Shown: positions 39,876-40,280 of the stretch, piece by piece
Numbering within the stretch: the first letter of the stretch is position 1
Layout of the letters: each line of letters starts with the position of its first letter
Source of the DNA: a virus
Reading direction: 5' to 3' (one strand)
DNA: 53,925 bases
Virus record (IMG/VR): IMGVR_UViG_3300032782_000361
Notes under the pieces: model-generated
What the model was told of the DNA's origin: nothing
Database searches by the model: none
The model's input: only the letters and a program-made list of their open reading frames with translations
Position numbers and translations under genes: made by a program

Positions 39876-40280
39876 CTACTTCTTGATCTTCACGCCGTAC
39901 TTCGAACGCGATTGCTTGCGATAGACCTTAGCCTCGTGGGCAGTCTCCGTCGGGCCCTCTGCCCCTGACGCGTCGAGCGATCCTCGCACCACGTGGTAAC
40001 GGACGCCCGGAAGATCCTTCACGCGCCCGCCGCGGATGAGGACCACCGAGTGCTCCTGAAGGTTATGCCGTTCCCCCGGGATGTACGCGTTCACCGTCAT
40101 TCCGTTGGTAAGACGGATACGTGCGCACTTTCGCTCCGCCGAGTTCGGTTTCTTGGGGTTCGCGATGTAGATGCGAAGAACAACACCACGCCGCTGCGGA
40201 GCCCCCTGGAGGGCCGGGGACTTGTCCTTCTTGCGCTTCTTCTTGCGCGCCTTCTTGACCAGCTGCGAGATCGTGGGCAT
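39876..40280 (-). CDS. rpsL: 30S ribosomal protein S12 homolog (isolated, divergent C-terminus)
   Basis: [10 protein letters not shown]...[12 protein letters not shown]...[19 protein letters not shown]...[39 protein letters not shown]...[11 protein letters not shown] is collinear with bacterial S12, with an ~11-aa insertion near the C-terminus. No rpsG/fusA follow. Confidence 0.8.

Follow-up and report, generated by a model that had tools for sequence, protein, structure and literature searches.

A ribosomal protein S12 gene of an apparently virus-specific lineage on a phage-type metagenomic contig

What use would a virus have for ribosomal protein S12? No other protein lies at the decoding centre, and both the accuracy of translation and the response to streptomycin are classically determined by S12. 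A gene of the rpsL type nevertheless stands by itself in the IMG/VR virus record IMGVR_UViG_3300032782_000361, a stretch of 53,925 nucleotides that is referred to here in its whole length as the window. Reversed, the window is the initial 53.9 kb of a metagenomic contig of 101 kb (ENA ERZ27256589 k141_2299559), and the analysis of the contig covers 62.5 kb, that is, the window and a further 8.6 kb (L093). Here, we report that the gene encodes a bacterial-type ribosomal protein uS12 and that related genes recur on phage-like contigs from independent samples. We consider it probable, at roughly 0.6, that the product is a functional phage-encoded uS12 of a virus-specific lineage which would be built into the 30S subunits of the host as part of a phage translation kit. 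The gene is the following:

39876-40280, minus strand: rpsL-like gene for a 134-aa bacterial-type uS12 of the phage-type lineage, ATG start, TAG stop.

It is beyond reasonable doubt that this open reading frame (ORF) encodes a genuine bacterial-type uS12. The protein matches the Pfam family PF00164 (Ribosom_S12_S23) with E=1e-34 and 119 bits (cut-off 22.3) and the NCBIfam equivalog TIGR00981 (rpsL_bact) with 184.4 bits (curated cut-off 112.95), residues 1-133 corresponding to model positions 1-122 of 124, and S12 chains from solved ribosome structures align to it at E~1e-48. An AlphaFold2 model shows a five-stranded OB barrel that is confident over residues 1-105, with block means of the predicted local distance difference test (pLDDT) of 76-92 for residues 1-100 and values below 50 in the tail, and the OB-fold beta-barrel with an extended N-terminal arm that marks the family is present in this model. 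When the model was compared to the PDB by Foldseek, the top 50 matches were S12 chains only (probability 1.00, TM-scores 0.58-0.69). The initial annotation, made from the sequence alone, had recognised an S12 homolog with all core blocks, and the PF00164 match, the end-to-end TIGR00981 match, the fold and the decoding loops described below all agree with it. Residue numbers are those of the gene throughout; K43, K88, D89 and P91 are K42, K87, D88 and P90 in mature numbering.

Among the features of the uS12 family that were tested, location in the str operon (rpsL-rpsG-fusA-tuf) is the only one that the window gene lacks. It had been described as standing alone on the minus strand between a small Zn-ribbon gene and a cellulase gene, outside any such operon, and both the gene map and tblastn bear this out. 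At E<=1e-3 no homolog of S7, elongation factor G (EF-G) or elongation factor Tu (EF-Tu) was found in the window, in the adjoining 8.6 kb or in eight related phage-type loci (L010-L012, L097, L001, L003-L005). The nearby rpsG or fusA that the initial annotation had named as a sign of chromosomal flanks was thereby looked for and not found. The S12-S7-EF-G operon was present in the control cellular loci L013, L015, L016 and L084, the tblastn queries having been taken from cellular controls.

A search of 5.8 billion proteins, made with the window protein first and then with a profile of its nearest relatives, yielded two distinct kinds of S12. The cellular kind is 132 aa long, contains VYTTTPKKPNSALRKV and the C-terminal GA.GPS.TNK..R, and is labelled Myxococcales, Polyangiales or Sandaracinaceae by its source records; in loci from a 'delta proteobacterium' and two Verrucomicrobiota the cellular 132-aa S12 is followed by S7. 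The phage type comprises about 40 distinct sequences of 129-141 aa, which are no more than 72% identical to the sampled cellular S12 among the matches listed. Fourteen genomic contexts of the phage type were inspected: the window, L010 (74 kb), L011 (77 kb, with a second contig of 133 kb), L012 (49 kb), L097, L099 (40 kb), L100 (45 kb), L101 (35 kb), the contigs of P0009 and P0060 (as gene tables only), and the IMG/VR viral contigs L001, L003 (128 kb), L004 and L005 (96 kb). In all fourteen, S12 is isolated among ORFans and phage-type genes, the gene tables being without an adjacent S7 or EF-G. The genes around it include ThyX, dCMP deaminase, HNH, endonuclease VII, an Amidase_2 lysin, GP88, a sigma factor, DNA ligase and RtcB, and the IMG/VR loci have PHROG matches to DNA polymerase (1.5e-105), helicase, primase, exonuclease, single-stranded DNA-binding protein and a minor head protein. 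The GC content of these contigs spans 44-65%. Between contigs S12 is 57-74% identical while the other genes have no match or about 30% identity, so that S12 is essentially the sole gene in common. The exception is L100, which also has a vault-like protein (48% identity) and a cREC_REC protein in common with the window and which, because of these two proteins, is a true relative of the window phage.

Phage-type S12 was found in none of 50,697 GenBank phage records and 72,556 plasmids, where the matches were of the cellular type, and the huge-phage records of Al-Shayeb et al. gave no S12 match of any type by tblastn. In a neighbour-joining (NJ) tree the phage-type sequences group together on long branches, and a core clade sharing 'GPT..KVYR' has a bootstrap of 82/100; a single origin of this core clade is likely on the sequences at hand. 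A degenerate DNA pattern for the core clade gave 0 matches in IMG/VR and 2 short contigs in the JGI metagenomes, and the pattern is uninformative as a census. Two further sequences on contigs of about 0.5 kb, P0013 and P0016, join a cellular-type N-terminal half of S12 to a phage-type C-terminal tail and are probably assembly chimeras across the conserved S12 region. By these comparisons, the window protein appears to be a member of a recurrent virus-specific S12 lineage derived from the cellular subfamily that has the G-P-S/T-x-T insertion.

For the residues at the decoding centre, 27 phage-type sequences were compared with 96 cellular ones. The decoding loop P42-K43-K44-P45-N46-S47 is invariant in both sets and is followed by A48 in 25 of the 27 phage-type sequences, the window protein having the full loop including A48. 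In the second loop, R83-G-G-R-V-K88-D89-L-P91-G-V-R-Y-H96, the window protein is identical to the cellular consensus; over the whole phage-type set R83 to R94 and H96 do not vary, and Y95 is kept in 26/27. The N-terminal MPT..Q and the C-terminal RSKYG are likewise invariant in the 27. D89 is presumably the methylthiolated Asp of S12. S47 is a residue contacting the decoding centre (PMC9304027). The initial annotation had proposed an inspection of K42, K87 and P90 (E. coli numbering), and all three are wild type: K43, K88, D89 and P91 are unaltered in the window protein, and the streptomycin and accuracy sites are wild type in every phage-type sequence. An rpsL allele for streptomycin resistance or hyperaccuracy was rejected on these grounds, K43, K88, P91 and the neighbouring classical sites being wild type, and through the classical sites nothing in the sequence predicts a streptomycin-resistant or hyperaccurate phenotype.

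The phage type departs from the cellular one around these conserved loops. T39 and T40, positions without variation in the 96 cellular sequences, are replaced by V or I; T41, invariant in the same set, is N, S, D or K; and position 49, L or M in cells, is N, E or K. In the AlphaFold2 model, residues 39-41 and 49 make up the two ends of the hairpin that bears the decoding loop (strands 29-40 and 50-57). C34, invariant in cells, is V in about half of the phage-type sequences and V52 is C in one third of them, and in the 67-72 loop G71, nearly invariant in cells, is D, R or E, and H72, invariant in cells, is N or T in about half. Some of these changes are coupled in the 43 phage-type sequences considered: between positions 41 and 49 there are 6 opposite-charge and 0 like-charge pairs, and positions 67 and 72 occur as I-H, D-T/S or V-N, a pattern that marks a folded protein still held under constraint. 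Over residues 9-22, in the N-terminal arm, the charge is +7.7 in the phage type vs +5.2 in the cellular type (p=2e-11, uncorrected for relatedness), and the window protein is the extreme at +9. The viral S12 is under purifying selection, as pairwise Nei-Gojobori dN/dS, computable for 30 of the 36 phage-phage pairs, is 0.06-0.36 at a saturated dS (>=0.9). The substitutions at cell-invariant positions (39-41, 49, 71-72) together with the more basic N-terminal tail seem to be what sets the viral copies apart.

An insertion before the C-terminus had been noted in the window gene. An insertion of about 11 aa is indeed present relative to S12 of the E. coli type, and the alignment to S12 chains of solved structures has an 11-residue gap there, but most of it is a cellular inheritance and no phage invention. 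About 8 of its residues (G-P-S/T-x-T...N/K) are also found in the cellular 132-aa S12 that precede S7, in Myxococcota, Verrucomicrobiota and some 'delta proteobacteria', and the phage type has just 2-4 residues extra within it, usually ending KVYR. The insertion as a viral novelty was rejected on this basis, and from the alignments it appears to be mostly inherited from the cellular S12 subfamily, hence not the distinguishing viral feature. Taken side by side, the cellular 132-aa uS12 is about 68-72% identical to the window protein and has the same OB fold, decoding loop, K88-D89-P91 loop and G-A-x-G-P-S/T-x-T insertion. It differs in that its genes reside in rpsL-rpsG-fusA operons, whereas on its phage contig the window gene stands alone, and in that it is invariant at C34, T39, T41 and H72, where the phage type is altered and has in addition the extra insertion residues and a more basic tail.

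The phage-type character of the element on which the gene was reported stood up, on the evidence of tRNAs, phage gene content and huge-phage homologs. The 62.5 kb harbour at least 25 tRNA genes, HNH endonucleases, endonuclease VII, S-adenosylmethionine (SAM) lyase, NUDIX, uracil-DNA glycosylase and many small ORFans, and PHROG families of unknown function are matched with E down to 1e-33. Two proteins, of 858 and 488 aa, have their only homologs among GenBank phages in uncultured huge phages of 462-735 kb. The larger, a vault-like protein, is 44-45% identical to its counterparts in the huge phages LR756500 and LR756501 and 48% identical to that of L100 (14036-16720), and the smaller is 36% identical to its huge-phage homolog. 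The vault-like protein may be regarded, by sequence similarity, as a lineage marker tying the contig to the huge phages and to the S12-bearing L100; a full-text literature search returned no paper linking a vault protein to huge or jumbo phages. No PHROG or Pfam match was obtained for the 488-aa protein, for a 420-aa protein or for a protein of 2046 aa. The two largest genes mentioned here are:

14860-17436, plus strand: 858-aa major-vault-protein-like protein (Pfam MVP_shoulder 3.7e-28, Vault_3 1.3e-07).
20020-26160, minus strand: 2046-aa ORF made up largely of diverged repeats, their period being 105 nt (35 aa), and without a match in Pfam, PHROG or NCBIfam.

Phage-type S12 is often accompanied by other genes of translation. 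The relevant RNA genes of the window and of its relatives, the latter including transfer-messenger RNA (tmRNA), are:

1234-9964, plus strand: array of 15 tRNA genes (ARAGORN, Rfam).
9888-9964, plus strand: tRNA with anticodon UCA, labelled SeC by ARAGORN from the anticodon alone, an ordinary tRNA by Rfam (RF00005, 53.6 bits).
L005 1156-1509, L011 8801-9149 and L012 10638-10962: tmRNA genes (Rfam).

Ten further tRNA genes lie just outside the window on the same contig, and the tRNA genes would be the remainder of the translation toolkit of the phage. The array in the window is 30 kb from S12, and in 6 of the 12 loci for which DNA was available (the window and 11 others) tRNA arrays or tmRNA are found within 3 kb of S12. 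In L100, S12 is situated inside an array of 37 tRNAs (1-17728), flanked by tRNA-His (71 nt upstream) and tRNA-Asp (34 nt downstream), and near it are a 130-aa RF-1-domain (ArfB-like) protein, the cREC_REC protein, an HAD_SAK_2 protein and the vault-like protein. The tmRNA genes are 0.2-0.9 kb from S12 in three independent contigs (Rfam 82-110 bits), L011 has one tRNA on either side of S12, and L004 and L099 have tRNAs within 3 kb of it. The tRNA(UCA) of the window is taken by us to resemble E. coli tRNA-Trp and, if this is right, would be a candidate suppressor of opal (UGA) codons; an ordinary tRNA-Trp(CCA) is present at L093 149-220. Stop-codon recoding tied to tRNA(UCA) was considered and no sign of it was seen in the window, where TGA ends 41 of 72 predicted genes. 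Just upstream of this tRNA, an ORF at 9541-9876 (plus strand) has a weak likeness to the peptidyl-tRNA hydrolase Pth2 (E~1e-3, far below the cut-off).

The signals and neighbours immediately around S12 in the window are:

39675-39872, minus strand: 65-aa ORF with a CxxC...CC Zn-ribbon and an acidic coiled coil, beginning 4 nt past the S12 stop.
40287-40315, minus strand: candidate sigma-70-like promoter, TTGACA (40315-40310), 17 nt, TAGGTT (40292-40287), 6 nt to the ATG.
40323-40336, without strand: palindrome copy CGTCCGTACGGACC, 8 nt upstream of the S12 -35 hexamer.
40498-42306, plus strand: glycoside hydrolase family 5 (GH5) cellulase (Pfam E=1.1e-50), divergent from S12 and on its upstream side.

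The Zn-ribbon ORF is probably co-transcribed and translationally coupled with S12. It has no family match in Pfam or NCBIfam, and a homolog with 34% identity and the Cys motif kept is found in the same place after S12 in the independent contig L012. A different small ORF, conserved, of 57-61 aa and predicted to form a coiled coil (consensus R.DRR.IEAE...KME.A..KYE.LRKLE), overlaps with its 3' end the start codon region of S12 in L010 (9859-10038), L011 (9859-10038), L097 (3487-3660) and L095 (minus strand) and is absent from the window. Homology of the two kinds of small S12-adjacent ORF was tried and rejected, hhalign finding none (probability 1%). As to the promoter pattern, the S12 site is the only match with zero mismatches in the window, and 6 matches are found at up to 2 mismatches where 1.26 are expected. 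Because only 6 nt separate TAGGTT from the ATG and no Shine-Dalgarno sequence is visible before the gene, the S12 mRNA is predicted to be leaderless or nearly so; phage-type relatives have instead, again by prediction, Shine-Dalgarno-like sequences or coupling to an overlapping upstream ORF. A second promoter-like site at 17527-17555 (plus strand; TTGACA, 17 nt, TAAGGT) stops 7 nt short of the ATG from which the 488-aa protein is read, which suggests another leaderless transcript.

The motif copy that had been noted directly upstream of S12 is present (CGTCCGTACGGACC, 40323-40336). It belongs to a 14-bp palindrome, GGTCCGTACGGACC, with 13 copies in the window vs 0.35 expected by chance, at 942, 5608, 6422, 9570, 13400, 21435, 28959, 31422, 36900, 40323, 42363, 49446 and 50104. 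The copies are mostly followed by TT(TT) on the plus strand, regardless of the orientation of the neighbouring genes, some are within ORFs, and no constant spacing to the promoter-like sites was found in the window. In the GH5 cellulase a signal peptide is probable, with a true start likelier near 40753, followed by a Pro/Thr linker and a C-terminal domain.

How would such a gene be of use to a phage? In the reading that we prefer, S12 would be transcribed from its own promoter together with the small Zn-ribbon ORF and would compete with the S12 of the host in 30S assembly. Its extra-basic N-terminal arm would be of help in this competition, and the basic extensions of phage S21 have been proposed to help in like manner (PMC7162821). 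The protein would enter ribosomes made during an infection that is probably long, and would then work with the phage tRNAs and, in relatives, also with tmRNA and rescue or repair factors. The substituted loop base (39-41, 49), the altered 67-72 loop and the more basic tail would adjust the behaviour of the decoding centre or the competition, leaving the catalytically relevant contacts intact. The data show the identity and fold of the protein, its phage context, the purifying selection and the recurrence of the lineage; expression, incorporation and any effect on decoding are what we infer from sequence, and the main argument for a ribosomal role is that residues which are meaningful only inside the 30S subunit are strictly conserved. 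Wild-type rpsL in trans is dominant over streptomycin-resistant alleles, which is the basis of rpsL counter-selection, and the dominance of the sensitive allele shows that S12 made from an ectopic copy is built into ribosomes.

Several points weigh against this account. The 62.5 kb of contig yielded no identifiable gene for a capsid, portal or terminase protein, and the phage status of the contig is a strong but not complete case built from huge-phage homologs, PHROG matches and gene content. The NJ bootstrap for monophyly of all phage-type S12 is only 9/100, and for sequences outside the core clade multiple acquisitions followed by convergence are possible. Reviews state that S12 makes no contact with SmpB; direct contact of S12 with tmRNA/SmpB was accordingly rejected, and because of these statements the linkage of S12 to tmRNA is a genomic one only. 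S12 is moreover a deeply seated assembly protein, outside the set of loosely bound, exchangeable proteins reported to be favoured by viruses (PMC6375957), and since it is not exchangeable it would act only on ribosomes assembled after infection starts.

The gene might also be a mere passenger, captured recently from a host and without phage function, or the contig might be cellular or misassembled. Phages do acquire host DNA, the exact window protein (P0001) is on record on one contig only (the 101-kb ENA contig), and the chimera-like P0013 and P0016 show that misassembly does happen around this gene. However, the gene falls in a set unlike the sampled cellular S12, both in the identity ceiling given above and in its changes at cell-invariant positions, this set recurs on 14 phage-like contigs of diverse GC content from independent samples, and its dN/dS is well under 1. 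Both flanks of the gene are phage-like, its GC content at third codon positions (0.79) is in line with the adjacent genes, and the tblastn searches left no companion of the str operon. The passenger or misassembly explanation is largely refuted already, and we rate it as very improbable. A role outside the ribosome, for example as an RNA chaperone, a regulator that acts on phage RNA by binding it, or a decoy titrating a host factor that binds S12, has more to recommend it and is still improbable. In vitro, the splicing of group I introns is aided by S12 of E. coli; the window protein, at a net charge of +24, is highly basic, and its N-terminal tail is even more basic than that of cellular S12; HNH homing-type endonucleases are present in the window, and to our knowledge S12 does not exchange on mature ribosomes. 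But no group I or II intron reached the Rfam gathering score in the window or 11 related loci, for which reason a chaperone for introns was rejected, and the PNSA loop, K88-D89-P91, MPT..Q and RSKYG are absolutely conserved, which would not be expected of a free RNA chaperone.

The remaining rival accepts incorporation into ribosomes and differs from the preferred explanation in purpose only. As a counter-defence, phage S12 would keep translation going while the decoding centre or the host S12 is under attack by the host or a competitor, its substitutions making it refractory, in parallel to phage tRNAs that replace cleaved host tRNAs. The company that S12 keeps, namely tRNA arrays, tmRNA, the RF-1-domain protein of L100, RtcB on the P0009 contig and the weak Pth2-like ORF, has the look of a rescue and repair kit. 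We know of no effector that modifies or removes S12, none was found in this analysis, and no defence or anti-defence gene adjoining S12 was identified. Second-line bacterial immunity does target tRNAs and ribosomal proteins (PMC7824862), and ribotoxins of the decoding centre, of the colicin E3 and CdiA-CT type, act beside S12 (PMC9304027). We hold counter-defence to be unlikely as the specific purpose. For the altered loop base and 67-72 loop two purposes may be thought plausible, tuning of decoding or resistance of the decoding centre to attack. The broader proposal that covers both, in which phage S12 would re-tune the decoding centre for phage tRNAs (which in this phage could include efficient reading of UGA by tRNA(UCA)) or shield it from attack, and so produce specialised ribosomes by replacement of a core protein, is tentative and somewhat less doubtful than counter-defence by itself.

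Incorporation of a phage-type uS12 into host ribosomes, the reading preferred here, can be set against what is known of viral ribosomal proteins. Mizuno et al. 2019 reported 14 of them, with bS21 and bL12 predominating and an enrichment of exchangeable proteins, of which bS21, bL12, bL9, bL31 and bL33 are named, and incorporation into ribosomes was demonstrated experimentally for bS21 and bL12; S12 occurs nowhere in the text of that paper (PMC6375957). Like those proteins, the window S12 is encoded on a phage genome, is under purifying selection and is presumed to replace a host protein. Unlike them, mostly peripheral and exchangeable as they are, it is a buried protein of the decoding centre and known from sequence alone. 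Of the features of virus-encoded ribosomal proteins, the viral genome and the purifying selection are found here, and exchangeability, which is typical and not defining, is not. Huge phages encode S4, S1, S21, L7/L12, tRNAs, and initiation and elongation factors (Al-Shayeb et al. 2020, PMC7162821), and the window resembles them in its large tRNA array, in two proteins with 36-45% identity and in the same presumed logic of redirecting host translation. Their S4 is likewise a core protein related to accuracy, whereas S12 is not listed there (PMC7162821). The bS21 paralogs of Francisella, reported to create specialised ribosomes in bacteria, are comparable in that an alternative protein of the small subunit could change the choice of messages for translation or the way in which they are translated; they are chromosomal and experimentally characterised, whereas the window S12 is viral, belongs to the decoding centre and is known from its sequence (PMC9578407, PMC13374519). 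S12 is not mentioned in the overviews of jumbo phages consulted here, and a full-text literature search for phage-encoded S12, uS12 or rpsL, with a coverage that is incomplete and leaves an earlier mention possible, returned no report. Viral ribosomal proteins are already known as a class; a viral S12 lineage is unlisted in the main surveys and is unexpected as it concerns a core protein of the decoding centre.

A viral S12 lineage that in several phages is physically linked to tRNA and tmRNA genes and is changed at positions invariant in cells suggests that there are large phages which modify the host ribosome at its core, and it bears on the question of whether viruses make specialised ribosomes. 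The phage S12 proteins are natural variants with coupled substitutions near the decoding loop and could serve ribosome engineering. If the reprogramming of ribosomes proposed above is true, large phages would build specialised ribosomes by way of a core protein and not a peripheral one.

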